Origin: Fibrobacteria bacterium
Lineage (GTDB): Bacteria > Fibrobacterota > Fibrobacteria > UBA5070
Length of the DNA stretch: 64,000 bases
NCBI GenBank assembly: GCA_035604215.1
Contig: DATNIW010000073.1
Span: 348 to 64,347 of the forward strand
Direction: 5' to 3'
The notes under the pieces were generated by a model, which was not told where the DNA came from, did no database searches, and saw only the letters and a program-made list of their open reading frames with translations. This document shows, in pieces, positions 24,913 to 40,735 of this stretch. The position numbers and the translations under genes are program-made. Numbering within the stretch: position 1 is the first letter of the stretch; the number at the start of each line of letters is the position of its first letter.

Positions 24913-25173
24913 GGGTGTCCAAACCTAGCTCGGAGGGGGGTATGCCCCAACGTGCGCGCGGCATCGCAAGTCCCCGGGGCCCCGAACGGAAACGGAGGAT
25001 CGAGGGGTGGACGGATCATGTCAACCGATCGGATCCCGACCCGGTTCGATGACGCGGAAGTGGGCCTGCGCAGCCGGTTCCAGGGTGATGAAACATCCCC
25101 GGTCCAAACGGTCCAAGTCGACGGGGTCGGAGGAGTTATATTCCGGGAGTTGCCTGTTCCGGCAATGCCGACC

Positions 25174-25319
25174 TGTGGGGTATTGTGGATCGAAAGATCA
25201 TCCAGAGGCCTGTTTCCCTGCGGATACCGGTGAATTTCCCAGTCTATGTGGACAACCTGTTGGCAGGTGTTGGGATATCTTGCGGAATTCCGGGTGCAAC
25301 TCCTTGCTTGTGTGGATTG
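25174..25319 (+). promoter_or_regulatory. Cluster of DnaA-box-like 9-mers upstream of and overlapping the dnaA start (autoregulation site / candidate oriC element)
   Basis: TGTGGGGTA (25174-25182), TGTGGATCG (25184-25192), TGTGGACAA (25247-25255) and TGTGGATTG (25311-25319). All are in the same orientation. The reference is TGTGGATAA, the complement of TTATCCACA. The last three are spaced 63 and 64 nt apart. Local GC is lower than in the flanks. Confidence 0.5.
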
Positions 25320-25321
25320 AT

Positions 25322-26731
25322 GTGAATTCCCTGTTGATTCAATCGGATTCCAGCCGCCTCTGGCAGGCTTGTCTGGAACGCGTCTCCCACGAGGTCAGTC
25401 GAGCCGCATTCGCCGCCTGGTTCGCCCCTCTGAAGAGCGGCGAATGGGAAGAAGACACCCTGCAGATCCTGGCCCCGACCCTGATCGCCAAGGAATTCGT
25501 CCACACCCACCACAAGGGCCTGGTGGAGAGGGTCCTTCGCGAAGAGGTGGGCGCCGAGGTCCTGGTCCGCATCATATTGGATCCTGCCGGGCCATCCGAG
25601 CCCATCCTCCGGGGCCCAGCTCCTCGCAGGACGCCGGAATCGCCCTCATCCCGCCTGGTTTCGGCCAAGCAGGAGATCCAGGCCGAAGGAATCCGTCGCG
25701 AGGCCGGTCGACTGGCTCCCCGGATGACGTTCGACAGTTTCGTGGAGGGCGATTGCAATCGCCTGGCCATGGCGGTGGCGCGCCAGGTCGCCGAACAGCC
25801 AGGCGGTGCGCGGGCAAACCCCCTGCTCCTGGTGGGTGGCACCGGCCTGGGCAAAACCCACCTGATGAACGCGATCGGGCATTTCGTGCTCGGCCACGAC
25901 GTCGCCCGCAAGGTGGTGTACCGGACCTCCGAGGAATTCGCGCGCGAGTATCTGGAGGTCGCGCGCAAGGGTGATCTGAAGGCATTCCACAACATCTACC
26001 GCGACGCCTCCGTCCTCCTGCTGGACGACATCCAATTCTTCGGGGGCGAGGTGGACAAGCCCCGGTTCCGCGAACAGATGGTCTACGTGATGGGCGCCCT
26101 GCAGGGCCAACGAAAGCAGATCGTCCTCACCTGCGACAGGCCACCTTCCGAGGTCCAGCATTTCGACAGGCAGATCCTGCGGCAGATCGAGTCCGGGTTC
26201 GTCGCGGACCTGGGCGCTCCGGACCAGGACACGCGCCTCGCCATCCTGCGTCGCAAGGCCAACGAGGGCGGCTGGGACGTCACCCAGGACGTTCTGGAAC
26301 TCATCGCCGAGCAGTTCACCGGCAACGTCCGGCAATTGGAAGGCGCTCTTCTCAAGCTTTGCGCCTTCAGCGACATCTGCGGAGGCAAGGTGGATCGCGC
26401 CACCGCCGAGGCCGTGTTCCGAGACGCCTTGCGCAACCGGCGCAACTCGTCCTCGCCGGGCGCCATCGCCCAGGCGGTCGCCGACGCGTTCCAGATCGAC
26501 ATCGCCCTGATGCGTTCGCGCACCCGCAAGCGTCCGGTCGTCGCGGCGCGCCAGTTGGCCATGCTCCTCATCCACGAGCTCACCGACAACACGCTCCATT
26601 CCATCGGCGTGCTGTTCGGCCGCGACTACAGCACGGTCACGCATTCCCTGGAGGCGGCGCGGGAATCGCTTGCGCGCGACGCCGAGGCCTCCCAGACCTT
26701 CCAGAGCCTGCGCGCGCGGTTCAAGGGCTGA
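25322..26731 (+). CDS. dnaA: Chromosomal replication initiator protein DnaA
   Basis: It has the AAA+ Walker A 'LLLVGGTGLGKTHLMNAIGH', 'VLLLDDIQFF', 'IVLTCDRPP' and 'GNVRQLEGAL', plus the C-terminal DNA-binding helix 'IGVLFGRDYSTVTHS'. The start is uncertain: in-frame GTG 25310, GTG 25322, TTG 25334. Confidence 0.9.
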   Translation: MNSLLIQSDSSRLWQACLERVSHEVSRAAFAAWFAPLKSGEWEEDTLQILAPTLIAKEFVHTHHKGLVERVLREEVGAEVLVRIILDPAGPSEPILRGPAPRRTPESPSSRLVSAKQEIQAEGIRREAGRLAPRMTFDSFVEGDCNRLAMAVARQVAEQPGGARANPLLLVGGTGLGKTHLMNAIGHFVLGHDVARKVVYRTSEEFAREYLEVARKGDLKAFHNIYRDASVLLLDDIQFFGGEVDKPRFREQMVYVMGALQGQRKQIVLTCDRPPSEVQHFDRQILRQIESGFVADLGAPDQDTRLAILRRKANEGGWDVTQDVLELIAEQFTGNVRQLEGALLKLCAFSDICGGKVDRATAEAVFRDALRNRRNSSSPGAIAQAVADAFQIDIALMRSRTRKRPVVAARQLAMLLIHELTDNTLHSIGVLFGRDYSTVTHSLEAARESLARDAEASQTFQSLRARFKG

Positions 26732-27194
26732 AGTTCGGGGTCCCGCCGGGACCCCGTCGCCAGATCTCCGTTCGGCCGAGCAGCGCGAACCCGACGAACC
26801 CACGGAGCCGGATCCTGTCCGGACCGTCCAGCGACGCCTCGCAACGGTAGGTCTTGCCGGATTCGGGATCGTAGATCCGCCCGCCGGACCAATTCCCGTC
26901 CGGGTCGGACCGGAGGTCGCTGAGGATGACCAGTCCCAGGATGTCGCGGCCGCGTCGGGAAAGGTCGGGGTTCATGTGGTCGAGCTTGGGGCCACCGCCC
27001 GGGGCTTCCGGGTCCTTCAGCCAGACGATCGCGCCGGTGAAGATCGGCCCGGTCCTTTCGATGCGCACGATCGACTTGCCGCCCCCGGTCAACCAGTCGC
27101 CGACGATCCCGTTTCCCGGTTCCCCGGCGATCGTTCCGCCGGAGGCCGCCACCAGGAGAAGCAGGGAGACCGCGACGCGGCATCGGTTGGACAT
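26721..27194 (-). CDS. DUF2147-like secreted protein
   Basis: 157 aa with a signal peptide 'VAVSLLLLVAASGG'. 'GRIYDPESGKTYRCEASL...IRLRGFVG...GRTEIWRR' matches the DUF2147 pattern as I recall it. Its 3' end overlaps the dnaA 3' end by 11 nt (convergent). Confidence 0.6.
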   Translation of the reverse strand: MSNRCRVAVSLLLLVAASGGTIAGEPGNGIVGDWLTGGGKSIVRIERTGPIFTGAIVWLKDPEAPGGGPKLDHMNPDLSRRGRDILGLVILSDLRSDPDGNWSGGRIYDPESGKTYRCEASLDGPDRIRLRGFVGFALLGRTEIWRRGPGGTPNFSP

Positions 27195-27219
27195 CGCCTG
27201 CTCCTTTCCGGGGAAGTCG

Positions 27220-27936
27220 CTACTTCTTCGCGGTTCCCTCGAACTTGGCGCAGGCCAGGGCGATGTCGCCGGGACTGCGCGTGGACTTTCCGTCCAGGTA
27301 GAGCGAGGGCGTGCCCTGGACGCCCAGGCTCTCTCCCAGCCTCATGTCGCGTTCCACCGCCTCCTTGGCCGCGTTGGAACGCCTGTCGGCGTCGAACCGC
27401 GCCATGTCGAGGCCCAGCGACCTGGCGGAGGACGTGAGGACGGAATCCGTCAACGAGCGGAAGCTCGGCGTGGTCGCGAAGTAGTACTCCCACAGCTTCC
27501 CCTGGCGCCCCGCCGCCCAGAGCGCGAGATGGCCTTCCATCGACCTGTCGTGGATGGTGACCAGGGGAAAATGCCGGAACGAGATCCGGAGGGTCTTGGG
27601 ATGTTCCGCCTGGAGATTCTTCAGCACCGGGGCCATCTGGGCGCAGTAGGGGCACTGCAGGTCCGTGAACAGGACCACCGTCACCGGAGCCTTGGATTCC
27701 CCCAGGACGGCCGTGCCTTCCACGGGGATGTCGAAGGTGGAGTCCTGGAGGGCCACCGCGCGCCGGTCGCGGTCGATGTCCAGGCCTCGCAGGGCGAGGA
27801 CCTTCTCCAGCGTGCGCAACTCGGTGGAGAGGCTGTCGACCTTGGCTTCCAGCGCCGAAATCTGTCCCGATGGAGGCTGCGCGAAGGCCAGGGCCGCGCC
27901 CAGGGCCAAAATGGAAATGGATGTCCTGACCTGCAT
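27220..27936 (-). CDS. DsbA-family thiol:disulfide oxidoreductase (secreted)
   Basis: ATG at 27936 inside a longer ORF. It has a signal peptide 'ISILALGAALAFAQ', a coiled-coil segment, the thioredoxin active site 'LQCPYCAQ' and 'GVQGTPSLYL'. Confidence 0.78.
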   Translation of the reverse strand: MQVRTSISILALGAALAFAQPPSGQISALEAKVDSLSTELRTLEKVLALRGLDIDRDRRAVALQDSTFDIPVEGTAVLGESKAPVTVVLFTDLQCPYCAQMAPVLKNLQAEHPKTLRISFRHFPLVTIHDRSMEGHLALWAAGRQGKLWEYYFATTPSFRSLTDSVLTSSARSLGLDMARFDADRRSNAAKEAVERDMRLGESLGVQGTPSLYLDGKSTRSPGDIALACAKFEGTAKK

Positions 27937-28033
27937 GTTCGCCGTCCCGTCCGTTGAGGTGCTCGACGGACAAACTAGGATCCGTGCAGGTCCCGACGGA
28001 TGCCGGACCGTCGGATCGGCTAACTTTGGGTCC

Positions 28034-29755
28034 ATGCCGCATCTGCTTCCCACCCGGTTGGAACCGAAACTCCTCACCGTGCTCCGCGAGGGGTACTCCT
28101 GGGCGGACTTCCGCCGCGACGCGCTGGCGGGCATCATCGTCGGCATCGTGGCCCTCCCGTTGGCGATCGCGTTCGCCATCGCTTCCGGGGTGAAGCCGGA
28201 GCAGGGACTCTACACGGCCATCGTGGCGGGCTTCCTGGTCTCCGCCCTGGGCGGCACCAGGGTCCAGATCGGAGGCCCCACCGGCGCCTTCATCGTCATC
28301 GTGTACGGGATCGTCCAGAAGTACGGATACGACGGATTGGCCGTGGCCACGCTGTTGGCGGGGGTCATGCTGGTGGTCATGGGGCTTTTGCGCCTGGGAG
28401 GACTCGTCAAGTTCGTGCCGTTCCCCCTGACGGTGGGCTTCACCACGGGCATCGCGCTGATCATCGCCACCACCCAGTTCGGCGATCTGCTGGGCCTGAC
28501 CATCCCCGGCAAGATCCCCGCGCTGTTCCTGCCCAAGCTCGCGACCTTCGCCCACGCGCTTCCGACCACGAACCCCTGGGCGGTGGGAATCGCGGCGGTG
28601 GCATTGGCGTTCACGGTGCTTTGGCCCAAGGTCACCAAGAAGGTGCCCGGTTCGCTGATGGCCATCCTGGCGACCACCCTGCTGGTGCGGATCTTCCACC
28701 TGCCCGTGAGCACCATCCACTCCCGATTCGGCGACGTTCCCAGCCACCTGCCCTTCCCCCACATCCCGACGGTTCCCTTCGACAAGTTCGTCGAGCTGTT
28801 CAATCCCGCGGTCTCCATCGCCTTGCTCGCCGCCCTGGAATCCCTGCTCTCCGCCGTGGTCGCCGACGGCATGACCGGACGCCGCCACCGGTCGGACATG
28901 GAGATCGTGGCCCAAGGCGTGGCCAACATCGTTTCGCCGCTGTTCGGGGGAATTCCCGCCACGGGGGCCATCGCCCGCACAGCCACCAACATCAAGAACG
29001 GCGGCCGCACGCCCATGGCGGGCATGGTCCATGCCGCCACCTTGCTGGTGATCCTGATGGTCGCCGGACGCTGGGCCGGGCTCATCCCCATGCCGGCCCT
29101 GGGAGCCATCCTCCTGGTGGTCGCCTACAACATGTCGGAATGGAGACTCTTCCTCAAGCTGTTCCGGGCGCCCAAAGGCGATGTGCTGGTGCTCCTGACC
29201 AGTTTCCTGCTCACGGTGCTCATCGACCTCACCGTGGCCATCGAGGTCGGGTTCGTGCTGTCCACGGCGCTGTTCATGAAGCGCATGGCGGAAGTGACGG
29301 AGATCCGCGACATCACGCAGACCATGGCCGAAGGCGAGGACCCGGACGACCCCGGATCCATTTCCCGCAGGTCCATCCCCAAAGGTGTGGAGGTGTTCGA
29401 GATCCAAGGATCCTTCTTCTTCGGGGCCGCGGAGAAATTCAAATCCGCGCTCCAGGAGGCGTCGCGGATGCCGCAGGTTCTCATCCTGCGGATGCGGGGC
29501 ATGCTTTCCCTGGACGCCACCGGGCTGCGGGCCATCGAGGAAGTCCACGCCCGCGCCCGCCGGGAAGGATGGGCCCTGATCCTGTCGGGGGTCCATGCCC
29601 AACCCATGACCGCATTGGTGCGATCGGGGCTCGCCGACCAGATCGGCGAGGAAAACCTGTGCGGGGACATCGACGAGGCCCTGGTCCGGGCGACCCTGCT
29701 CCAGTCCTCCCGCCGGGACAAGAAAACCGCGGCGCAGAAGGTCCTGGGCGGCTAA
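28034..29755 (+). CDS. SulP-family anion (sulfate/bicarbonate) permease with C-terminal STAS domain
   Basis: It has 'DALAGIIVGIVALPLAIAFAIASGV' and many TM helices. 'ARTATNIKNGGRTPMAG' is a SulP signature region. A STAS-like tail follows: 'VEVFEIQGSFFFGAAEKF...LILRMRGMLSLDATGL'. Confidence 0.88.
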   Translation: MPHLLPTRLEPKLLTVLREGYSWADFRRDALAGIIVGIVALPLAIAFAIASGVKPEQGLYTAIVAGFLVSALGGTRVQIGGPTGAFIVIVYGIVQKYGYDGLAVATLLAGVMLVVMGLLRLGGLVKFVPFPLTVGFTTGIALIIATTQFGDLLGLTIPGKIPALFLPKLATFAHALPTTNPWAVGIAAVALAFTVLWPKVTKKVPGSLMAILATTLLVRIFHLPVSTIHSRFGDVPSHLPFPHIPTVPFDKFVELFNPAVSIALLAALESLLSAVVADGMTGRRHRSDMEIVAQGVANIVSPLFGGIPATGAIARTATNIKNGGRTPMAGMVHAATLLVILMVAGRWAGLIPMPALGAILLVVAYNMSEWRLFLKLFRAPKGDVLVLLTSFLLTVLIDLTVAIEVGFVLSTALFMKRMAEVTEIRDITQTMAEGEDPDDPGSISRRSIPKGVEVFEIQGSFFFGAAEKFKSALQEASRMPQVLILRMRGMLSLDATGLRAIEEVHARARREGWALILSGVHAQPMTALVRSGLADQIGEENLCGDIDEALVRATLLQSSRRDKKTAAQKVLGG

Positions 29756-29768
29756 TATTTCGGCCCAT

Positions 29769-30173
29769 ATGAGGAATCTTCTCCTGTGGACGGTCGCTCC
29801 GACCCTGGTGTTGCTGGGATGCGCAGGATCGGCGCCGAGGGACGGTTCCGAGGGCTCGGAAATCCTGGACAGGGCGGCGAGGCGCGTGGCCGAACGCTAC
29901 CGGGACCAGTGCTTCGAGCCCGTGGCCAAGCGGGAGGTCCCCGACGACATGTGCCAGTTCGATCTCTTCGACAAGGCGGAACGGGAGTGGGGTACCGGGT
30001 TCGGCGTCACCGAACTGAAGGTCTCCGCGAACAAGATGCTGGGGATCGAGATCGAAAAGGAACTCTACAAGCTCCTGGTGTACGACCAGGCATCGCAGCG
30101 GTACGTGGCCTCCAGCACCCGGACCCGATACGAGATCATCGCCGCCCTCAAGGACAAGTACCGGATACGGTGA
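29769..30173 (+). CDS. Small lipoprotein of unknown function
   Basis: 134 aa with the lipobox 'LVLLGCAG'. It lies 5 nt upstream of the next gene. I recognise no family. Confidence 0.55.
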   Translation: MRNLLLWTVAPTLVLLGCAGSAPRDGSEGSEILDRAARRVAERYRDQCFEPVAKREVPDDMCQFDLFDKAEREWGTGFGVTELKVSANKMLGIEIEKELYKLLVYDQASQRYVASSTRTRYEIIAALKDKYRIR

Positions 30174-30177
30174 CATC

Positions 30178-32046
30178 ATGAAACAATCCAAGGCGCTCCA
30201 CGGTGTTCTTCGGATCCTGCTCCTGTTCTTCTCCCTGGTGGGGACGGCGGGTGGGGGAATCTATTGGTTCGCCTTCCGTGAGCAGGAAACCGATTGGCGG
30301 GTTTTCGCCGTCGGGCTCCTCCTGTCGATGGTGTTGGGTTGGTGGCCTTGGATCTCGTTCGCCACCGGAGCCGTCCTGGCCCTGGCCGCGGCCTTGGTGG
30401 GCCCGGACCAGATGCGACTGCAGGTGGCGGGAGAAATCCTGGGATTCTGGGTTCTCGGCCTGGGTTGGGGCACATTGGCCCGTTGGCAGTTCCATTTCGT
30501 GCCGGCGCCCGATCCCCGTTCCAGACACCCATCGGCGCCACCGACGGCCAATCGATCGATGTCGACCAGGGCCGCGGACGCCGATGCCTTCCGACCGCGC
30601 CGCCTCATGGAAGGGGATGCCGAGGAACCTGGCCGCCAGGAACCACCCTCTCCTGCACAATCGCCAACCCTCTCCGACCCCGGAAGGACCCCGATATCGG
30701 AGGAGGCTCCTATACCGCTTCCGCTGCCCTCCCTCGAGGGTTTGCAGTTCTCCGCGCCTCCAATGCCGAGGGCCGAACTTCCAAAGCCCCCTCCTCGTCC
30801 ACCGGCCACACCCTCGCTCGCCGAATACGGCGGGGAGTCGCTCTATCTGGGAAGCCTTCCGGACATCTCCCGTGCCGGGTCGGCGATGGGGGAGTCCACC
30901 CATCCCGCCATCCCCGCATTTCCCGAGCGTAGCGCGCCGATCCCGGCACCACCCTCGTCGGGAGCCATTCCACCTCGCCTGACCGAGGAATCCAGCGTGT
31001 TCATCGCACCGGAATACCCCACCATGGAGCTTCCGGTGAACAGCCTTCTGCGCCCTCCGCAACCGCGGAGCACCAAGTCGCCCCCGTCCTCCGCGGGTCC
31101 GATCTCGGCTTCGGGCCCGGCCTCGGCTTCGAGCGAGTCCTCCGGAGACGGCCAGGGTTCCCGGCGTTCTTCCGTTTTCCAACGACCCGAAACCACTCCC
31201 GGGGCCAGTTGGGAACACGTTCTGGAGTGGTACAACCAGTTTTCCTGGTCGCCTTGGCCGGTGGAGGAACTGGAACGCAGGTATTACCGGCCCGGGATCC
31301 AGGTGGGTTGGGAAAGCCTCGCCCTCCAGGATCTCGCCGCCGCCTGGAAGGTCTGGCGCCGCGGTTGCAGTCCGCTCGAACTGGAGCCGGGCCAGATCGA
31401 CGTGCGAGCCCTCGAGGGGTTCCTGCGATGCGAGCAGCTCGGCGTCCTGCGTCACCAGGGGTTTCCCGATCTCCACATCCTTTCGCGCGCCGATGGCAAC
31501 GACGGATGGCTGGCCGTCTACCGCGAGGTCCGGGGTCGGATGAGGGGTGGGGAAGCGACCATCCACCGGGTGGATGTTGGAACGCCGCTGGTGGACGCCG
31601 AGACCGGTCTGGTCGGGCGCCCGGACCGGCTCGCCGAGATCCGAGGCGAAAGCGACGTCGTCGCGCTGGTCACGCCGTTTTCCGTCAACGAAGGCCTGAA
31701 CTGGACCACGGTCTACGCCCTGGCCCAGTACCGCTTGGCCCATTCGCTGGAGCACGTCCTGTCCGGCACGCCCGTGGTGGTGAACCTGCCCCTGCCCATC
31801 TGGGACGAGAGGAAGCAGAGCCGACTGGCCACGGTCGACGACATCGGGTCGGAACAGAGGCGGCTGGACGTGGCCCTGGAGCGGTTCCGACGGGTTTTGT
31901 CGGGCCAGGCGTCCCCCAGGGCGCAGACCCACGCCGGGACCTGCTCCGGATGCGGCTGGCGCCACGCCTGCCCCAGCTACCAGGGAACGCGGCCCCGCCT
32001 GGAGCTTTCCGATCCGCCACCCCAGATCGCGGCGGCTTTGCGATGA
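30178..32046 (+). CDS. Membrane protein with a Pro-rich linker and a C-terminal Cas4/AddB-like (PD-(D/E)XK, Cys4 Fe-S) domain
   Basis: 622 aa. About 4 hydrophobic helices lie in residues 10-110. A ~230-aa P/S/A-rich low-complexity segment follows. The C-terminal ~270 aa has an upstream Cys ('FLRCEQ'), 'GRPDRL', 'ALAQYRLA' and a terminal C-x2-C-x5-C ('CSGCGWRHAC', nt 31942-31971). Confidence 0.5.
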   Translation: MKQSKALHGVLRILLLFFSLVGTAGGGIYWFAFREQETDWRVFAVGLLLSMVLGWWPWISFATGAVLALAAALVGPDQMRLQVAGEILGFWVLGLGWGTLARWQFHFVPAPDPRSRHPSAPPTANRSMSTRAADADAFRPRRLMEGDAEEPGRQEPPSPAQSPTLSDPGRTPISEEAPIPLPLPSLEGLQFSAPPMPRAELPKPPPRPPATPSLAEYGGESLYLGSLPDISRAGSAMGESTHPAIPAFPERSAPIPAPPSSGAIPPRLTEESSVFIAPEYPTMELPVNSLLRPPQPRSTKSPPSSAGPISASGPASASSESSGDGQGSRRSSVFQRPETTPGASWEHVLEWYNQFSWSPWPVEELERRYYRPGIQVGWESLALQDLAAAWKVWRRGCSPLELEPGQIDVRALEGFLRCEQLGVLRHQGFPDLHILSRADGNDGWLAVYREVRGRMRGGEATIHRVDVGTPLVDAETGLVGRPDRLAEIRGESDVVALVTPFSVNEGLNWTTVYALAQYRLAHSLEHVLSGTPVVVNLPLPIWDERKQSRLATVDDIGSEQRRLDVALERFRRVLSGQASPRAQTHAGTCSGCGWRHACPSYQGTRPRLELSDPPPQIAAALR

Positions 32047-33305
32047 TCGGGACGCCCATCCAGCCGGCCAACGATCCGAGCCGCTTCCTGGACGAGGAGG
32101 CCGTCGAAGCGGTGTACCGGGTCCTGTCACCCCAGTGCGAACTGGTCGTGGTGGAGATGGGTCGCCTGCTGCAGCGCGCCGCCGAGAATCGAGTGCCCGC
32201 CGTGCAGGTCAAGGGCAGGGTCAAGAGGCTCCCGAGCCTCCTGGAGAAGCTCCAGAGGAAATTCAGCCCCCAGGACCTGGTGGAGCCCCTGCCGGCCATG
32301 CGACGCCTCGCCGATCTCATGGCCTTGCGGGCGGTCTGTCCCTTCCTGGAAGACGTCGATCTCGTGGTGGACGCCGCCCGGTCGGTCTTCGAGATCCAGG
32401 AAACGGAGCAGAAGGGAGAAGGGCGCTCCTTCGCGGAATTCGGCTACGCGAGCACCCATCTGCAGGTCAGCCTCCCCTACCAGCTGCAGCAGGAATATCC
32501 CACCCTGTCCGAGTTCCGCGTGGAAATTCAGGTGCGCACCATCCTCCAGGACGCCTGGGCGGAGGTGGAACACGAACTGATCTACAAGGTGGGGGCCCAC
32601 CCCCTCAACCAGCAGATCCGTCGGAAATTGGCCGCCTTGAACGCGAATCTCGTCCTTTCCGACACCATCTTCCAGGAGATCCGCGACTACCAGAAGTCCA
32701 ACATCTCCGACCTGGCCAGGGCCAGGGAAAACCACCTGGAGCAGGCCACGGGCGAACACGCCCTCTACACCGCTCCCGGGGAGAACGCCCCCCGGCCTCG
32801 CCGGACCTCGCAGGGGGAGGTGGAAAAGCTCCTGAAAAAGGGGCTCAACGCCCAGATCGCCGGGGAGATGGAGGACGCGGTGCGGATCTACACCACCCTC
32901 CTGGAAAACCCCCTGGACAACTTCACCCTGTCCGTGGTCCTGAACCACAGGGGCATGGCGAACGAATCGCTGGAACAGAACGCCGATGCCGTCCAGGACT
33001 TCCTGCGCGCCCGGGAGGCGGATTCCCGCAACGCCCGCGCCCGGATCAACTTGGCTCTCGCCTGGCGACGACAGGGACGTCTGGAAGAAGCGGAGGCGGA
33101 ATTCCTGGACGTCCTCTCCTTCAAGGCCAACAGCGCCCACGCCCACTACGGGTTGGGACTGGTCCAGTCCGACCGAGGTGAGGTCCCGGAGGCCATCCTC
33201 TCCTGCGAACGCGCCTTGAAGCTCAGCCACAGTTTCACTTTGGCACAGCAGCTGTTGGACGAACTGCTGGAACACACGCGCCGGGAAGCGGGCGGAGGGT
33301 CCTGA
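32043..33305 (+). CDS. RelA/SpoT-domain small alarmone synthetase fused to C-terminal TPR repeats
   Basis: ATGA overlap with the upstream gene. Synthetase motifs seen: 'VKGRVKRLPSLLEKL', 'DLMALRAV', 'FGYASTHLQV', 'EIQVRTILQDAWAEVEHELIYK'. There is no HD hydrolase domain. The C-terminal ~150 aa is TPR-like ('...ALAWRRQGRLEEAEAEF...AHAHYGLGLVQSDRGEVPEAI'). Confidence 0.8.
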   Translation: MIGTPIQPANDPSRFLDEEAVEAVYRVLSPQCELVVVEMGRLLQRAAENRVPAVQVKGRVKRLPSLLEKLQRKFSPQDLVEPLPAMRRLADLMALRAVCPFLEDVDLVVDAARSVFEIQETEQKGEGRSFAEFGYASTHLQVSLPYQLQQEYPTLSEFRVEIQVRTILQDAWAEVEHELIYKVGAHPLNQQIRRKLAALNANLVLSDTIFQEIRDYQKSNISDLARARENHLEQATGEHALYTAPGENAPRPRRTSQGEVEKLLKKGLNAQIAGEMEDAVRIYTTLLENPLDNFTLSVVLNHRGMANESLEQNADAVQDFLRAREADSRNARARINLALAWRRQGRLEEAEAEFLDVLSFKANSAHAHYGLGLVQSDRGEVPEAILSCERALKLSHSFTLAQQLLDELLEHTRREAGGGS

Positions 33306-33467
33306 CTCGGAAATCTTGGGCTCCCGAACGTACTCCGAACGCGACCGGCGTCCAAAGTTTCCCGTGGATCGCGGGCCTAGGGAAGAACGTAAGGCGGTAA
33401 ACTGAGGATCGGAGTACTCTGGATCAGTCCGTCGAGATCCCTTCCAGGCCGGTAAACGGAGTTCATC

Positions 33468-36400
33468 GTGAAATTTGCCCTCAGCGCGACATTTTTGATA
33501 TCCCTCGCTGGACCCTCGATGGTCCAGGCGGCTGACCCCGTACCCTACGACTCCATCGCCAATCCGTTGAGCGAACTTCCGACGACGGTGACCAACATCC
33601 AGCAGATGGGGGACACCATGAACCGGGTCCCCGGCAGGGTGCGTGTCAACCAGGCCGGGTACCGGTTGGCGGACATCCAGAAGGGGTGGGGTCGGATCTA
33701 CTACGTGGATGCCGGGAGTGCGAAAAGCTTCACCGTCATCAATGGTTCGAACGTCGCTGTCGCCACGGGCCCGTTGACCTCCAGGGGACAGAGAGTCCAA
33801 GGGCGAGTGATCCCGTTCGCCTACTACAACGCCGCCACCCCCACCCGAATCAGCCTTCCCGGCTACAACAACGCCACGGGGATGGCCGGTTCCAGAGCTA
33901 CCGCGGGAACCCTCGACCAAGGATTCCTGCCCACGACCCTCCCCTGGGGACGGTACCGCGTGGTCGTGGGTACGGACACGTCGGAGCCGTTCATCGTCAG
34001 CGACAACGTGTACGGGATGGCCCGTGACGCCGCCATCAAGTTCTTCGGGGTGGCGCGCAGCGGCGAATACCAATCTTGGTTCCATCCCGCCTCCCACATG
34101 TGGGACGGCTGGCTCTACGACAGCGCTGCCAAGAACCCTGACGGCACATACAAATACAAGGGAGCCCTGACAGGAGGGTGGTACGACTGCGGCAACCATT
34201 TGAAGGAAAGCCGGACCATGAGCTATTCGCTCGCGGCTTTGGGAATGCTGGCTGCGACGATGCACGACAAGGACGTGGACCACTACGCCTTGAACCAAGC
34301 CTACACCCAACAGACGGATGGAATTCCGGATGTCCTCCGCGAGGCGTGGGTGGGTAGCCAGTTCGCTTTGAAGTCCTTCCGCTTGGCCCAGGGAAACACC
34401 GCCAACATGTACCTGTCCGTGGGGAATCCACCGGGAGGACCTGGACCGAACCAGGGTGTGGATTTCCTGTGGTGGGGTAGGCCGGAGAATCAGGACCAGG
34501 TGACCGACATCAATCGCGGGGGCGCGAACGAGCGCAACGTGGTCAAGAATTGGGGAACCCCATCCATGGCCGACTGGGCGGCGGGATTGGCCTTCGTATC
34601 CCGAATGTACCGACCCTACGATCCGAGCTTCTCCGACACCGCCCTGATCATGGCCAAGGCGATGTACGCGCAAGCCAAGAAGACGAACGCGGCGGAAGGG
34701 GGCAGCGACTACGATGGCGAGACCATCGTCATCGACGATCTCGCGCTGGCGGCGGTCGCGCTGCTTTGGGCGACGCACGACGTCACCTATCTGAACGATG
34801 TGGCCTACACGCCGGGAATGGTCAACGGACTGGGAGGCACTTGCGCCGCCTCCAACGCGGGGACCGCCACGAACCGGTTCAACGGGGGATATTTCGGCTG
34901 CGGAAGCAACGGAATCATCAAGAACAGTGGAACTTCCTGGGCGAACATCGAGAGCTTTTCCCTCTATTCCATGATCAAGCTGATTCTGGTGGATCCGGAT
35001 ACCGCGCAAAATTACGGGATCGCCCCCGCCCAGCGCGACACGCTGCTTCTCCGGTGTCTGAACAACCTGATCGGTACCGAATTGTCCGGAGCCGGAAAGA
35101 CGTTCACGCTGCCGATCGGCGGATATTCTCCTGCGATGGTTTCCTATGACAGCCTTTGGTACAACATGAACTACGGATCTGGTGTTCCCGGCTGGTTCAA
35201 CAAATACGAGTTTGGCCATTTCGCGGATCTCTACATGTATTGGGACGCCACGTCCATCGTCGATCAAAAGCCGTTGTTGAATGTTCCCGCGACGCCCGGC
35301 TATTGGATGCGCGACACCGTTCAACATCTCATCGTGGACGGCATGGATTACATGTTCGGGATGAATGCCATGGACCTGTCCTACCTCATGGGCGTCGGGC
35401 ACAAGAATCCCAACCACCCCCACCATCGAGCTGCAAATCCCGAGGGCAAGAATGTTCCCGGGGCATACTACAACTACAGCATTCCCGTGGGCGGACTTTG
35501 GGGAGGGCCGGCCTATTCGGACACCGTCGTGAAGGACCTCTGGGAAAACCAGGTGTCGGTTTCCGAGGCGAACTGTCCGGATGCATCCGCGGCAGTGATG
35601 ATTCCGTTGATGGGCTTGTCCAGAGCGGAACCCGTTGTGGCTCCTGTGCCCACGGTCTCCGTATTGAGCTCCTCCGACACCTCCGCCGTGATCCAGGTGA
35701 ATCTCGACAAGTACGGCTTCGTCAAAATCGGATACGGCACCGATTCGAGCGGCAGCGGACAGATGACCTACGTGAACAGCACGGACAGCGGGGTGACGCT
35801 CAGAGTCACCCTCAACAAACTGACCCCGGGGACCAAGTACTACTTCTCCGTGACCGCGAGCGACGTGGAGGGAGACCAGACCTTCTCCCACGCTTGGGTG
35901 CAGTCGAATGGTGATTCGATCCCCTACAACTTCACCACGCTCTCCAGCGTTGCGAGCAATCCGAGCTATTCGAACATCAAGGTGTGCAACGTCACGGCTG
36001 ATTCCGCCGAGGTGATGTGGGTCACGCCCAATGGGACCTTCCCGTCGGCCGTCGCCTTCGACGACAGCGCGGATTGGGTGGCGGGAAAACGCATCGAGGT
36101 GGACACCGACGAAACGGGTCCGATCTCCGTCGAATTCCACAGGGTGCTTTTGACAGGACTCAAGGAACAAACCACGTACTACTTCCAGGTCGGCGTCCCG
36201 GGAAGCTTCGGCTCCGTGGTGGGTTGCTTCCGCACTCCGGTCGAGGATGTGAAATTCGATATCCGGGCCAGTCGCTACAACTGGCCGGAGGGGCCGGACA
36301 ACACCTACACGGGGTCCTCGGGTTCCGTCATGCGTGCGCTCAGCCTTGGGGTCACCAACCAGGACAGCAAGTCCTACGATTCCCTCATGCTTCGCATCTA

Positions 36401-39400
36401 TCTGCGCGGCACCAAGTACTACCCGGACAGCATGGTCGATTTCGGTGCCCGTTGCGACATCGGATTCGCCTACATGTCGGACGGGTACATCGATTCGGGC
36501 TTCGAATCGATGGTCGACGGTGCGCTCCGGGTTTCGTACGCGCAAAAGGTCGATTCCACCTGTCCGGACAATTCCGTTTGCGACTGGTACTTCAACATTC
36601 CGCTTTACGACAGCGCGGAAGCGCCGGTGATGGAATCCCAGGCGAGATTCCGGCTGGACGTGCTGTTCGACACGCACAAGTACGAGATCAACAACGCCAC
36701 TGGACAATACCAGGTCTATCCGGACCTCATGAACCACGCTCCGGCGCACGATCCGTTCGCGGTGGGGACGAAGGACTGGTCGTTCCGGATCCACGTGGCC
36801 GGCGCCGACAATGGGTTGTCGCCCGTCAACTACGCGGGAGTCCCCTTCGCCGACAAGAATGCGCTGGACGACTCCTCGCAGAACATTCCCGTCGAACCCT
36901 ACATCGCGGTCTACCGCAAGAACACCTTCGTGTACGGATATTCGCCCAATCCAGTCGAACAGGCGACCAAGCGCACGGTCTACGCCATGAACGTGGCATT
37001 CGATCCCCCGTTCAACCAGCAGAACGGGGCGCCCATCGTGCTTTCGAGCGGTGCGCGCACGATCAACATCACCGGAACCGCGGACGTGTACGACCAGCTG
37101 ATGCCGGTGGCAAAGGGGTACATCACCTCCATCTGGATCAATGGAACGGCGCTCGCCCCACCGGTACTCGCCTCCGCGATTTCCAAACAAGCGGACGGGA
37201 CGTGGAAATTCGATATCCCCGTGACTCTGGCATCGGGCACCAACAACCTGAACGTCACCATCTTCGCGGGCAGCGATTCGGCCGATACGACGCCCACGGG
37301 AACGTGTCAGGAGGGCAACGGGTGCGCGTTCGCCGCGCGAGAGTGGCTTGTCAACAGCGTCTCCAACCGGACCGCCTCCGCGCTCGCAATCGTCGACGGC
37401 TCCAATGTCGCCGCAGGTCCGCGCGTGACGTCGGACAGCTCGCAGATCAACATCCGAGTCACGGACGGTGACAACAACCTGATGCCCCTTGTGAAAGACA
37501 CGGTGCTGGTCACCATCACCGACCTGCGGACGGGACAGAAGCAGGTGCTCAAGCTGGTGGAAACAGGAGTTGCCACCGGAGTCTTCGAGAGCGGTCTGCT
37601 TCCCGTGACCAGCGGTCTACCGGTCGCCGGAAAGATCTCGGTCCTTCCGGGTGACAGCGTGCTGGTGAAGTACGTGGACGCCACCGACGCCACCGATTCG
37701 TCCCAAGCGTACCTCTACGCGAAGGCCGTGTGGCCCGTACCCTTGCACGCCGGGGTCTTTCGCGACTGTGGCGGCAACTACTCGGTGCAGGCCCTGTTCA
37801 ATCCTGTCTTCGCCGCCTCCGGTTGGGACACCGCCCGCGTCGTACTGCACTCGGGTCTGGATTCCGTCGTCGACGTGGTCAAACCGTCCAGCATATCCAC
37901 CACGGGTGGATCGACACTCGTCATCCCGGTTTCCGGGCTTGCGGGAAGCAGCCTGACCGGCAGACTCTCCGTTCAGGTAGCCAACGGCACGGGTGGATGG
38001 ATCACGGAATCGGTGGCAGTGGACGACAGCATCGGACCCTGGGTGGATTCCGCGAAGATGGTGCAGAACCTGACAGGAAACCCAAAGGACTCCGTCTTCT
38101 TCTGGGCTTCGGAGCCCGTGGTCCTGGGGACCGGTTGGCCCTTCCTCGTGGAGCGGGCGGGCGCCGCAGTCCCGGCATCGTCCTTCACCGGTGCGGTCGT
38201 CTCGCTTCTGGACGCCGCCACGGACAAGTATCTGGCGGTCCTGCCCGCGGGCAAGCTGCTGGCCGGAGACTCGGTGCGGTTCGATCCGGCCTTGGTGGTC
38301 GACGGCCACGGGAACGCCGCCCTGGATTGCCCCGGAGGCAGGAAGGTCCAGCTCATCTCCGTGGCCTATGCGGGTCTGGGCGCTTCGCTCACCGAGGCTT
38401 GCGGCGGTGCCTATTCCGTGAAGGCGTTGTTCAACAAGGCCTTCACGGCCACCGGCGGCTACGACACCGGATTCGTCACGCTCTCCAGCGGTGCCGCCAC
38501 GGTCGGTCCCTTCGCGGTGCCCCCGGGATCCATCTCCGTGGACGCCAGCGGCAAGACCTTGACCCTGCCGTTGCCCGGCCTGACCTATGGAAGCGGCTGG
38601 ACCGGTCGCCTGGACCTGCAGGTCACGGGCGACACCGGGGCGATGCACGTCGTCTCCATCGCGGTCGCCGACGGGGTCGGGCCTTGGATCGATTCCGCGA
38701 AGATCGTACAGAATCTGACCGGCAATCCCGTGGACTCCGTCTTCTTCTTCGCCTCGGAGCCCTTGGTCCTCTCCTCCGGGTGGCCGTTCCTGGTGGAACG
38801 CGCCGGAACCGCCGTCCCGGCATCGGCCTTCTCCGGCGCCAAGATCTCCCTCCTGGACTCCGCCTCGAACAAGTACCTGGCCTTGCTTCCGGCCAATGAT
38901 CTCGTCTCCGGCGATTCGGTGCGGCTGGCACCCGCTTCCGCGACCGATCTCTCCGGCAATCCGGCCCTGGACTGCCCCTCGCTCCTGCGCCGGGTCACGC
39001 TCGTCGTGCGGCCGGCGCCTCTGGGGAAGGCGTGGATCCTCGACGCGTCCGGCGACGGCAGGGCCGACCAGGTCGATCTCGTCTTCGGCAAGACCCTCAC
39101 CGCCACCGATCTGCCGGATTCCGTCGTGATCCGGTTCGGGATCCACGACTCGTCGCGCACGGTCGTGGTTTCCATGGCACAGGCGACCGACTCGCTCCTT
39201 TCCATCTCCCTGCCCGTTCCGTTCTCCTTCGGGATCACCACCGGCTCGGCCGCGAATGGTTCCGGGACCGTCTCGCTCTGGAAATCCGGCGAACCCGTGG
39301 GACCGTACGTCCTCTCCGACAGCGTGGGCCCCGTCCTCGTCTCGGCAGGCGTGCGCTACGGTTCGAACCTCGACACGTTGAGCCTGGGCTTCTCCGAGCC

Positions 39401-40727
39401 GGTCCGGCGCGGCGTGGGTGTCGGGTGGCTCTTGGGCCAGCCTGCCGTGGAACTCGGGACCTCCGGGGCTCCCGATTCGCTGTCGCCCACCCAATGGCTT
39501 CTTCCGGTCGTGGCAGGGTCGGTTTCTCCGGGGGATTCGGTACGACCCGTCCCTTCCGAGCAATGGGTGGAAGGTCGCACCGGACGTCCGGTGGCTCCAG
39601 CCCAGCCGTGGATCCCCGTGACCGGAGGCGAACGACCGCCCTTGTACGGTTGGTACAGCGACATCGACGGAAACGGAGCGGTGGACCAGGCCGTGGTCGT
39701 CTTCTCCAAGACTCCCAAGTCCCGGCCGGGCATGCTCCTCCTGTGGCCGTCACCTTCCAGCGGATTCGACACCGCGAAGGTGGACAGCGGCGCGTGGAAC
39801 CTGAATGCGGACGGCCTCACCACCACCATCCCGGTGGGTCCCTTCGCGCAGGGCATCACGTCTTCCCCCACAACCAACTTGGGCAAATGGGTCTCGGCGG
39901 GGACGTGGAACTTCCCGATGTACGACAGCGTGCCTCCGGTGCTGGTGTCCGCCGCGGTGCGCTACGCATCGCAGGACGGGATCCCGGACACCTTGCATGT
40001 GCGCTGGAGCGAGCCCATCGACTGGAACGGCGCGGGATCGCTGGTCCGACACCGCCTCGCCGGTGTGGAGAATCCCGTGCTGGCCTCGGGCGGCATCCCC
40101 GACGCGGACGGCATGGGTGAACAGATCCTGATGACCCTCGATACCATCCAGTTGCGCAAGGGGGATTCGGTCGCCTTCACGGCGGGCAACGTGTCGGATC
40201 TCCTGGGCAACGCGGTGCCCCAGACCACCCGCTGGGTGCCCGTGACCTTCGGCCTGCGTCCGGTGCAGATCAGCTTCGTCTTCCAGAGCTACATGGAATA
40301 CACCGGCTGGAATCCTCCGTCGGGGCCTGCGATGCAGGTCTGGATGCGCGGGCGCGGCGACGCCGTGTGGCTGAACACCGACAGCAGCGCCGTGTCGGAC
40401 ACCACCCACGTGATCGGCGCCACCATCACCATCAACAACCCCGTCGGCGGGGCCATCTACATCTACGACAACGCGGGGACCTTCGTGGCCTCGCTGGACC
40501 TCTCCCCGATCCCGGCGCTGGCGGCCCAGGGGCGCCTCCCGACCGATCCTTCCGGCATGTACCAGATCCGGATCGGATGGAACGGGATGACGGAAAACGG
40601 AAAATGGTCGTCCAGCGGGATCTACCTGATGCGGATCGTCCTGACGGGAACGGGTCTGCACGGCGGGAACACCACGGGCATCTTCAACCAGGTGTACAAG
40701 CTCGGCTTCAAGCGGCCGACCAAGTAG
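33468..40727 (+). CDS. Giant secreted GH9-family protein (copy 1): Ig-like N-domain, GH9 domain, 2 Fn3-like domains, CBM3-like segment, many Ig-like repeats, T9SS-type C-terminal domain
   Basis: GTG start with GGAG 8 nt upstream; 2,419 aa. Signal peptide 'ISLAGPSMVQA'. 'VRVNQAGYR' (CelD_N-like). GH9 blocks 'GGWYDCGNHLKE', 'NPNHPHHRAANPEG', 'SEANCPDASAA'. Fn3-like 'LTPGTKYYFSV' and 'LKEQTTYYFQV'. C-terminal tail 'IYIYDNAGTFVASL...WNGMTENGKWSSSGIYLMRIVL...YKLGFKRPTK' (FlgD-Ig / Por secretion-tail-like). Confidence 0.85.
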   Translation: MKFALSATFLISLAGPSMVQAADPVPYDSIANPLSELPTTVTNIQQMGDTMNRVPGRVRVNQAGYRLADIQKGWGRIYYVDAGSAKSFTVINGSNVAVATGPLTSRGQRVQGRVIPFAYYNAATPTRISLPGYNNATGMAGSRATAGTLDQGFLPTTLPWGRYRVVVGTDTSEPFIVSDNVYGMARDAAIKFFGVARSGEYQSWFHPASHMWDGWLYDSAAKNPDGTYKYKGALTGGWYDCGNHLKESRTMSYSLAALGMLAATMHDKDVDHYALNQAYTQQTDGIPDVLREAWVGSQFALKSFRLAQGNTANMYLSVGNPPGGPGPNQGVDFLWWGRPENQDQVTDINRGGANERNVVKNWGTPSMADWAAGLAFVSRMYRPYDPSFSDTALIMAKAMYAQAKKTNAAEGGSDYDGETIVIDDLALAAVALLWATHDVTYLNDVAYTPGMVNGLGGTCAASNAGTATNRFNGGYFGCGSNGIIKNSGTSWANIESFSLYSMIKLILVDPDTAQNYGIAPAQRDTLLLRCLNNLIGTELSGAGKTFTLPIGGYSPAMVSYDSLWYNMNYGSGVPGWFNKYEFGHFADLYMYWDATSIVDQKPLLNVPATPGYWMRDTVQHLIVDGMDYMFGMNAMDLSYLMGVGHKNPNHPHHRAANPEGKNVPGAYYNYSIPVGGLWGGPAYSDTVVKDLWENQVSVSEANCPDASAAVMIPLMGLSRAEPVVAPVPTVSVLSSSDTSAVIQVNLDKYGFVKIGYGTDSSGSGQMTYVNSTDSGVTLRVTLNKLTPGTKYYFSVTASDVEGDQTFSHAWVQSNGDSIPYNFTTLSSVASNPSYSNIKVCNVTADSAEVMWVTPNGTFPSAVAFDDSADWVAGKRIEVDTDETGPISVEFHRVLLTGLKEQTTYYFQVGVPGSFGSVVGCFRTPVEDVKFDIRASRYNWPEGPDNTYTGSSGSVMRALSLGVTNQDSKSYDSLMLRIYLRGTKYYPDSMVDFGARCDIGFAYMSDGYIDSGFESMVDGALRVSYAQKVDSTCPDNSVCDWYFNIPLYDSAEAPVMESQARFRLDVLFDTHKYEINNATGQYQVYPDLMNHAPAHDPFAVGTKDWSFRIHVAGADNGLSPVNYAGVPFADKNALDDSSQNIPVEPYIAVYRKNTFVYGYSPNPVEQATKRTVYAMNVAFDPPFNQQNGAPIVLSSGARTINITGTADVYDQLMPVAKGYITSIWINGTALAPPVLASAISKQADGTWKFDIPVTLASGTNNLNVTIFAGSDSADTTPTGTCQEGNGCAFAAREWLVNSVSNRTASALAIVDGSNVAAGPRVTSDSSQINIRVTDGDNNLMPLVKDTVLVTITDLRTGQKQVLKLVETGVATGVFESGLLPVTSGLPVAGKISVLPGDSVLVKYVDATDATDSSQAYLYAKAVWPVPLHAGVFRDCGGNYSVQALFNPVFAASGWDTARVVLHSGLDSVVDVVKPSSISTTGGSTLVIPVSGLAGSSLTGRLSVQVANGTGGWITESVAVDDSIGPWVDSAKMVQNLTGNPKDSVFFWASEPVVLGTGWPFLVERAGAAVPASSFTGAVVSLLDAATDKYLAVLPAGKLLAGDSVRFDPALVVDGHGNAALDCPGGRKVQLISVAYAGLGASLTEACGGAYSVKALFNKAFTATGGYDTGFVTLSSGAATVGPFAVPPGSISVDASGKTLTLPLPGLTYGSGWTGRLDLQVTGDTGAMHVVSIAVADGVGPWIDSAKIVQNLTGNPVDSVFFFASEPLVLSSGWPFLVERAGTAVPASAFSGAKISLLDSASNKYLALLPANDLVSGDSVRLAPASATDLSGNPALDCPSLLRRVTLVVRPAPLGKAWILDASGDGRADQVDLVFGKTLTATDLPDSVVIRFGIHDSSRTVVVSMAQATDSLLSISLPVPFSFGITTGSAANGSGTVSLWKSGEPVGPYVLSDSVGPVLVSAGVRYGSNLDTLSLGFSEPVRRGVGVGWLLGQPAVELGTSGAPDSLSPTQWLLPVVAGSVSPGDSVRPVPSEQWVEGRTGRPVAPAQPWIPVTGGERPPLYGWYSDIDGNGAVDQAVVVFSKTPKSRPGMLLLWPSPSSGFDTAKVDSGAWNLNADGLTTTIPVGPFAQGITSSPTTNLGKWVSAGTWNFPMYDSVPPVLVSAAVRYASQDGIPDTLHVRWSEPIDWNGAGSLVRHRLAGVENPVLASGGIPDADGMGEQILMTLDTIQLRKGDSVAFTAGNVSDLLGNAVPQTTRWVPVTFGLRPVQISFVFQSYMEYTGWNPPSGPAMQVWMRGRGDAVWLNTDSSAVSDTTHVIGATITINNPVGGAIYIYDNAGTFVASLDLSPIPALAAQGRLPTDPSGMYQIRIGWNGMTENGKWSSSGIYLMRIVLTGTGLHGGNTTGIFNQVYKLGFKRPTK
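37728..39017 (+). repeat. Intragenic tandem duplication, two units of 645 nt (215 aa), within GH9 giant 1
   Basis: Matching strings sit at a constant +645-nt offset: GATTCCGCGAAGAT at 38046 and 38691. Further shared strings are 'GACTCCGTCTTCTTCT' and 'GTCCCGGCATCG'. At protein level 'GPWVDSAKMVQNLTGNPKDSVFFWASEPVVLGTGWPFLVERAGAAVPAS' matches 'GPWIDSAKIVQNLTGNPVDSVFFFASEPLVLSSGWPFLVERAGTAVPAS'. Confidence 0.85.
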
Positions 40728-40735
40728 GGGGATGG

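Follow-up and report, generated by a model that had tools for sequence, protein, structure and literature searches.

A conserved gene trio in Fibrobacterota places a small alarmone synthetase beside a predicted Cas4-like membrane protein and a lipoprotein

Introduction

What could act on a small alarmone synthetase (SAS) that is encoded in one unit with a membrane protein and a lipoprotein? This question is raised by a locus of a Fibrobacteria bacterium (assembly GCA_035604215.1, contig DATNIW010000073.1, positions 348 to 64,347), which we analyzed within a window, namely the whole stretch of 64,000 nucleotides (nt) with a guanine-cytosine (GC) content of about 66%. Three genes on its + strand encode a lipoprotein, a membrane protein whose C-terminal domain is predicted to resemble the iron-sulfur (Fe-S) nuclease Cas4, and an SAS with a tail of tetratricopeptide repeats (TPR). 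The original prediction, made from the sequence alone, had taken this trio for an undescribed signaling or defense module. Our analysis shows a conserved, lineage-specific unit in which the synthetase is of a known type and the other two proteins represent uncharacterized families. Genomic context and synthetase family speak against defense; signaling is the better half of the proposal, and is unproven. We regard it as an evenly balanced proposition that this vertically inherited operon constitutes a lineage-specific envelope or redox/iron input to (p)ppGpp synthesis, with the Cas4-like domain binding the synthetase.

To our knowledge, the post-translational switching-on of small alarmone synthetases is largely unknown, and we know of only one biochemical study of the SAS-TPR family, the work on Tde-SAS. 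SAS-TPR proteins constitute the DsRel family, of which Tde-SAS (TDE1711) of Treponema denticola has been characterized as a tetramer with ppGpp as the preferred product; it restores growth in minimal medium of Escherichia coli CF1693, a strain unable to make (p)ppGpp (PMC10434055). Tde-SAS's TPR domain is an autoinhibitory brake on catalysis, and its authors speculate that an unknown protein frees this brake by binding the TPR domain (PMC10434055). The fusion of synthetase and TPR region, which had been counted among the undescribed features of our locus, is thus an established architecture (PMC10434055). The pairing itself fared better as a novelty: we found no paper combining small alarmone synthetases with Cas4, and papers on Fibrobacter and alarmones were irrelevant to it.

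Results

Three genes kept together while their flanks change

The unit consists of the following elements:

29769-30173, + strand: gene 1, lipoprotein of 134 amino acids (aa) with a signal peptide
30178-32046, + strand: gene 2, membrane protein of 622 aa with an N-terminal hydrophobic region, a linker and a C-terminal Cas4-like domain
32043-32046, + strand: ATGA overlap of the TGA stop of the membrane-protein gene with the ATG start of the synthetase gene, read from the raw sequence
32043-33305, + strand: gene 3, small alarmone synthetase of 420 aa with a TPR tail (SAS-TPR/DsRel type), identified by Pfam, a structure-sequence match and homologues

The list of open reading frames (ORFs) and the raw sequence agree on this arrangement. 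The lipoprotein gene ends with a TGA at 30171-30173 and the membrane-protein gene starts with an ATG at 30178, which leaves a gap of 4 nt ahead of the 4-nt overlap, exactly as had been proposed.

We compared the window proteins with 42 fetched loci, 38 of which carry the C-terminal domain of the membrane protein. The SAS-TPR gene comes next in all loci with downstream sequence (35/35), and the lipoprotein gene and the hydrophobic N-terminal region are present in every locus with at least about 1.95 kb of upstream sequence. As far as sequence reached, the trio is never split in the 38 loci. The 4-nt overlap is kept as (A/G)TGA in 31 of 35 related loci, and the gap between lipoprotein and membrane-protein genes measures 0-16 nt in all of them, while the identity of the C-terminal domain across loci ranges from 41 to 96%. 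The flanks, on the other hand, vary: upstream stand either DsbA/SulP genes or UvrB and a hybrid histidine kinase (SulP itself occurs in only part of the related loci), and downstream a GH9, ABC transporter, GrpE or LamG-type gene. Since the trio is kept while the flanks change, it represents a conserved unit, as the original prediction had suggested. Identity between the trio and its relatives varies in parallel with flanking-gene identity, as expected under vertical descent.

Outside this arrangement, SAS-TPR genes stand alone among unrelated neighbours in four other organisms examined, including Chitinispirillum, Desulfuromonas and Alkalispirochaeta, and database searches found the lipoprotein and membrane-protein families only in one Fibrobacterota lineage. 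The pairing is therefore lineage-specific. By the same comparison the three genes are real and not chance ORFs of high GC content, as homologues exist for every one of them and 38 loci repeat the arrangement. Many long spurious ORFs do occur on both strands of the window, for example one of 660 aa at 30148-32130 on the - strand, which is typical at 66% GC.

A synthetase of the SAS-TPR family

The 420-aa product of gene 3 divides into two regions:

32163-32684, + strand: synthetase domain, approximately residues 41-214
32808-33254, + strand: TPR region, approximately residues 256-404

The Pfam family RelA_SpoT (PF04607) matches with 66.8 bits against a cut-off of 27 (expect value, E, 2.5e-18). 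TPR families (TPR_1, TPR_2, TPR_16, TPR_11 and related ones) match at residues 296-397 with a best E of 2.8e-12, and the C-terminal region also matches consensus TPR structures. An HD hydrolase domain is absent, Pfam reporting RelA_SpoT and TPR families only along the 420 aa. The closest solved structures are RelQ/YjbM of Bacillus subtilis (5f2v, 5dec) and RelP (E ~1e-15), and the sequences GRVKRLPS, DLMALR, GYASTH, VEIQVRT and EHELIYK align with the corresponding RelQ/YjbM motifs; CapRel structures match weakly (E 1.3e-4). Judged by its sequence, gene 3 thus encodes a complete synthetase-only RelA/SpoT homologue (RSH) with a TPR tail, in agreement with the original prediction, and has the SAS-TPR/DsRel architecture.

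More than 2,400 relatives were found in the database search. Two-domain relatives of about 405-420 aa occur in spirochaetes, Desulfuromonas and Chitinispirillum with 33-40% identity over ~90% of the length; homologues from Alkalispirochaeta, Sediminispirochaeta and Desulfuromonas reach E-values of 1e-56 to 1e-65 at a coverage of 85-96%. Within the Fibrobacteria clade, the synthetases share 58-96% identity. The DsRel assignment rests on this architecture and on the nearest relatives outside the Fibrobacteria clade rather than on placement in a tree. Tde-SAS, with 410 aa, has the same two-domain layout as the 420-aa protein described here: an N-terminal synthetase of ~220 aa with all synthetase motifs (Syn1-4), no hydrolase, and a C-terminal TPR region of ~180 aa. 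On sequence grounds, gene 3 is therefore a member of a known, housekeeping-type family. What sets the Fibrobacteria genes apart from Tde-SAS and other SAS-TPR genes is that they are always translationally coupled to the membrane Cas4-like protein and the lipoprotein.

In one Fibrobacteres metagenome-assembled genome (MAG; locus L011, 6879-8124), the SAS-TPR gene aligns as two pieces in different frames (6879-7181 and 7165-8124), a pattern suggestive of a frameshift, whether through misassembly or because the gene is a pseudogene.

A membrane protein with a predicted Cas4-like domain

Gene 2 encodes the following regions:

30205-30480, + strand: four hydrophobic segments, approximately residues 10-32, 41-55, 58-74 and 83-101, from hydropathy and loop charges
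30493-31212, + strand: low-complexity linker of ~240 aa, residues 106-345, with 21% Pro, 15% Ser and 11% Ala
31213-32043, + strand: C-terminal Cas4-like PD-(D/E)XK domain, from an AlphaFold model, Foldseek, sub-threshold Pfam matches and residue statistics
31429-31431, + strand: codon of Cys418
31615-31632, + strand: GRPDRL, with GRPD at 31615-31626
31666-31674, + strand: LVT in the place of the (D/E)xK motif
31942-31971, + strand: C589-x2-C592-x5-C598

The motif coordinates of GRPDRL, LVT and C-x2-C-x5-C given in the original prediction proved correct. Three of the hydrophobic segments exceed the hydropathy cutoff; the fourth is marginal, its assignment resting on its sequence and on conservation among homologues. 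Positively charged residues cluster at the N-terminus and behind segment 4, and together with the number of segments this makes a topology with both termini inside likely. No export signal for an Fe-S-type C-terminal domain was found in the protein.

Full-length homologues (558-657 aa) share this architecture, with a linker that varies in length and sequence. Distant homologues show 36-52% identity in the N-terminal hydrophobic region, to which BLASTP matches of the window protein with them are confined; translation and alignment revealed that their C-terminal domains are homologous nonetheless. Within the linker, distant homologues (L003, L005, P0133/P0136/P0137) carry a short conserved motif, TQE(I/V/L)-x-(L/I)-G-D-F-(R/K)-x-(F/W), in whose stead the window protein has AEYGGES-x-YL-x-SLP.

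The C-terminal domain belongs to a small family comprising 11 clusters among 5.8 billion proteins, 9 of 185,579 species genomes (all of them Fibrobacterota MAGs) and 22 metagenome loci. When the family profile was run exhaustively with HMMER against 1.84 billion representatives, seven genuine members came back; the only other matches were a low-complexity protein and P0138, an ORF called out of frame, and no bridge to Cas4 families emerged. P0138, a database entry of 582 aa, comes from a homologous locus read in the wrong frame, and follows the true frame only in its last 38 residues.

Next, we modeled the domain with AlphaFold from 11 sequences (predicted local distance difference test, pLDDT, 70.6; predicted template modelling score, pTM, 0.71). 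The best Foldseek match in the PDB is a type I-C Cas4 (8d3l_J; E 2.6e-5, probability 1.00, template modelling (TM) score 0.49 by target), and the top 29 matches all belong to this nuclease group, including Cas4 (among them SSO0001), MGME1, RecE, AdnAB, lambda exonuclease and LHK-Exo. At the sequence level, PDDEXK_1 (PF12705) scores 16.6 bits against a cut-off of 22, with E 0.054 when the whole protein is the query and 0.0078 with just the domain; across the family, sub-threshold matches were obtained to PDDEXK_1 in 9 of 13 members (best E 0.0015) and to Cas_Cas4 (PF01930) in 7 of 13 (best E 0.0011). Because the TM-scores are modest (0.38-0.51), we treat the assignment to a Cas4/AddB-type PD-(D/E)XK fold, drawn mainly from the predicted structure, as good but not certain.

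Residues expected to hold a cluster or to catalyze cleavage were tabulated in 25 distinct family sequences. Cys418 is invariant (25/25), and Cys589, Cys592 and Cys598 are present in all 24 sequences reaching that far, one being truncated. A helix with the sequence LEWYNQF is likewise invariant in the family. The motif-II residue Asp483 of GRPD is Asp in 22 sequences and Ser in three. At the motif-III position, which we located by spacing and by the strands that the model predicts, residues 497-499 read L/F/V, then V/I/F/T/L, then Thr (22/25) or Arg (3/25), and an acid plus Lys pair is found in 0/25 family sequences. Gln517 is Gln in 22 and His in three, and the Tyr at Q+1 is variable. The AQY sequence pointed out in the original prediction is not the Q-h-x-x-Y motif of the RecB family, as there is no Tyr at Q+4, where the window protein has Ala. 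The remainder of the prediction for this domain, a Cas4/AddB-type layout lacking the ExK, agrees with both the fold matches and the residue statistics. Retention of all cysteines combined with loss of catalytic residues points to a non-catalytic, cluster-holding module, and by these residues the domain is probably not a nuclease.

Compared with Cas4, AddB, AdnAB, Dna2 and Exo5, the domain shares the predicted fold, the "iron staple" of one upstream Cys and a C-terminal C-x2-C-x5-C and, in 22 of 25 sequences each, a motif-II Asp after G-x-P and a Gln following the core strands. It differs from this group in lacking (D/E)xK and the tyrosine of Q-h-x-x-Y, in remaining below Pfam thresholds, in its attachment to the membrane through four hydrophobic segments followed by a 240-aa linker, and in having an alarmone synthetase as neighbour instead of cas1, cas2, a CRISPR array or a helicase.

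A lipoprotein of a restricted family

The lipoprotein carries its lipidation motif near the N-terminus:

29811-29822, + strand: lipobox LLGC, with G17-C18 invariant in 20 homologues

Cys48 and Cys62 are also invariant in these homologues, and the C-terminal KDKYRIR is invariant too. The AlphaFold model is all-helical (pLDDT 87.2), and a fold search with it against the PDB gave no match (best E 2.9); nor were there Pfam, NCBIfam or PADLOC matches to the protein. According to the model, the protein may have a small periplasmic fold of a new type, with Cys48/Cys62 as a conserved pair. Its range is restricted like that of the C-terminal domain of the membrane protein, and a database entry with 100% identity to the lipoprotein bears the annotation of a protein from a Fibrobacteria MAG.

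Genomic surroundings

Outside the conserved core, the following genes were identified:

25007-26731, + strand: DnaA gene, ~3 kb upstream of the trio (Bac_DnaA 2.7e-44, DnaA_N, Bac_DnaA_C)
28034-29755, + strand: SulP-STAS anion transporter gene, a variable neighbour (Pfam Sulfate_transp 5.9e-82, STAS 1.3e-13)
33468-40727 and ~40732-47014, + strand: genes for two giant proteins (~2,400 and 2,100-2,200 aa) with GH9 (cellulase-type), fn3-like and Pur_ac_phosph_N domains

The chromosomal origin region probably lies within the window. Further upstream neighbours of the trio are genes for a DUF2147 protein, a DsbA-like protein and the SulP-STAS transporter, and the order dnaA-DsbA-SulP-trio is repeated in a related 216-kb contig. 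The SulP-STAS gene ends 13 nt before the lipoprotein gene on the same strand, so that four genes may belong to the transcription unit in the window. A scan of 27000-34000 for promoter and terminator consensus sequences found nothing above shuffled expectation, and the operon boundaries are consequently not defined. Called mechanically, the SulP ORF runs from 27665 to 29755 on the + strand (696 aa) and overlaps the DsbA-like gene on the opposite strand (27220-28179, -). The Met at 28034 (MPHLLPTRLEPK) is probably where it really starts, since the Pfam transporter domain begins at residue 149 of the ORF and relatives have 558-561 aa.

The giant genes had been labeled as cargo of the type IX secretion system. 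For this label, the first shows only a sub-threshold Por_Secre_tail match (19.1 bits against a cut-off of 23), and the second shows none. The GC content of the trio region is the same as in the remainder of the window. The window holds no CRISPR-like repeat array, an Rfam scan of it found no family, and no Pfam families of cas genes, cas1/cas2 or a helicase partner occur among neighbouring genes, whether in the window or in related contigs, in accordance with the original prediction that cas genes and CRISPR arrays are missing here.

Discussion

How might the three proteins work together? In the mechanism that we propose, the linker and the Cas4-like domain would face the cytoplasm, with the domain holding an Fe-S cluster. 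It would no longer cut nucleic acid and might instead serve as a binding or sensing module that contacts the synthetase, most simply via the TPR domain. The lipoprotein, the membrane segments and/or the Fe-S cluster would sense the envelope or redox/iron state, which in turn would govern (p)ppGpp synthesis locally at the membrane. The lipoprotein and the membrane protein may accordingly be the missing regulators of an SAS-TPR enzyme. As an analogy only, RcsF-IgaA and NlpE-CpxA likewise combine a small periplasmic lipoprotein with an inner-membrane protein that controls a cytoplasmic signaling enzyme; there is no sequence or fold relationship to them, and the output here would be a nucleotide alarmone in place of phosphorylation. 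A bolder version, which we offer only tentatively, holds that a catalytically dead, Cas4-derived Fe-S domain, tethered to the membrane's inner face and coupled to a periplasmic lipoprotein, is the direct ligand releasing the DsRel TPR brake.

A number of points weigh against the proposed mechanism. The Cas4-like fold comes from a model of moderate confidence (pLDDT 70.6, falling below 50 in the cysteine loop) with TM-scores of 0.38-0.51, and all Pfam matches to PDDEXK_1 and Cas_Cas4 lie below the gathering cut-off. Searches of PDB sequences with the membrane protein, either as a single sequence or as two family profiles, returned nothing, or low-complexity and TPR-like noise, and a PHROGs scan of 13 family members gave no meaningful match. 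The acidic residues E419, E505 (invariant), D543 and D555 (24/24 complete sequences) could form a non-canonical active site. Fe-S clusters in the Cas4-type fold are usually structural, not sensory. The model would fail if the marginal segment 4 is not membrane-spanning, which would put the C-terminal domain in the periplasm. The preference for ppGpp and the TPR brake are known only for Tde-SAS, not for this enzyme. Finally, operon membership is compatible with co-regulation alone, and protein-protein contact is something we infer.

This last point leads to the main rival explanation, co-transcription without physical coupling, in which the partners would have an envelope or Fe-S job of their own and the mechanistically independent synthetase would merely share their promoter and be co-regulated at the level of transcription. 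SAS genes of Firmicutes respond to envelope stress via transcription, and in our locus the coupling of the partners is known from gene linkage, not from contact. Moreover, the SulP-STAS gene lies just 13 nt upstream in the window, so tight spacing alone is no proof of a complex. However, SulP and other neighbours come and go while the trio remains unsplit in 38 loci, the overlap is kept across 41-96% identity, and both partner families are absent outside this arrangement, a pattern typical of subunits or obligate partners. We therefore consider mere co-transcription rather unlikely. A simpler explanation still, that the adjacency reflects chance or the shared ancestry of close relatives and has no functional meaning, could draw on the many loci that stem from closely related MAGs with the whole region collinear. 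Yet trio and overlap persist in clades whose flanks differ completely on both sides and whose protein identity is only 41-59%, which renders this explanation barely credible.

Two further readings assign the trio another activity. An active membrane-tethered nuclease with a non-canonical site, for instance in DNA uptake or processing at the membrane, would make the synthetase an accessory. The fold matches are all nucleases, Asp483 and Gln517 are each kept in 22 of 25 sequences, several further acidic residues never vary, and some PD-(D/E)XK enzymes have relocated catalytic residues. The acid/Lys pair at motif III is nevertheless missing from every sequence, the Asp is lost in three, the Tyr at Q+4 is lacking, and genes for DNA uptake or repair and cas genes are not consistent neighbours, so that we judge this reading improbable. 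The defense half of the original prediction envisaged abortive infection. In an anti-phage or toxin-antitoxin module of this sort, a growth-arresting synthetase like toxSAS or CapRel would be held in check by the membrane protein and released on infection. Synthetase-only RSH enzymes do include toxSAS and CapRel, which also possess a dedicated conserved neighbour or regulatory domain, and a membrane-tethered DNA-binding fold could in principle detect injected DNA. The PADLOC candidate PDC-S33 matches the synthetase (E 6.1e-14), and CapRel structures do so weakly, as mentioned above. But the PDC-S33 match covers the shared synthetase domain alone (residues 38-173), without any PADLOC match to the lipoprotein or the membrane protein, and the enzyme is far closer to RelQ/RelP, belongs to another SAS subfamily and has the SAS-TPR architecture. 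Where toxSAS and CapRel are paired with a small antitoxin, a small alarmone hydrolase (SAH) or a fused pseudo-zinc-finger domain, the synthetase described here has no adjacent small antitoxin or SAH gene; its neighbours are the 622-aa membrane protein and a GH9 gene, and its C-terminal domain is a TPR. The locus lies in the core genome near dnaA, DsbA and SulP, its GC content is normal, mobile or defense genes are absent, the trio diverges in step with its flanks, and the characterized SAS-TPR member makes mainly ppGpp and rescues E. coli CF1693 rather than killing it (PMC10434055). We thus rejected the defense reading, which appears very improbable on the grounds of core-genome context and synthetase family; the locus is not a defense island, and the trio looks like housekeeping signaling instead of phage defense.

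What, then, does the arrangement add to the biology of these enzymes? Only a few uncultured Fibrobacterota have the module, and its mechanism is one that we infer throughout. The module would also exemplify an iron-sulfur nuclease fold of the Cas4/AddB type that probably gave up catalysis and acquired a membrane anchor. With regard to the SAS-TPR family, two specific candidates that are strictly co-inherited with the enzyme are put forward by the operon as partners for the TPR brake, which makes the idea of a brake-releasing protein directly testable. If the ligand version of the proposal is true, the long-sought partner type of SAS-TPR enzymes would be identified, and the Fibrobacterota trio would represent a transmembrane input to the stringent response, from the envelope, from redox/iron state or even from incoming DNA, of an undescribed kind.

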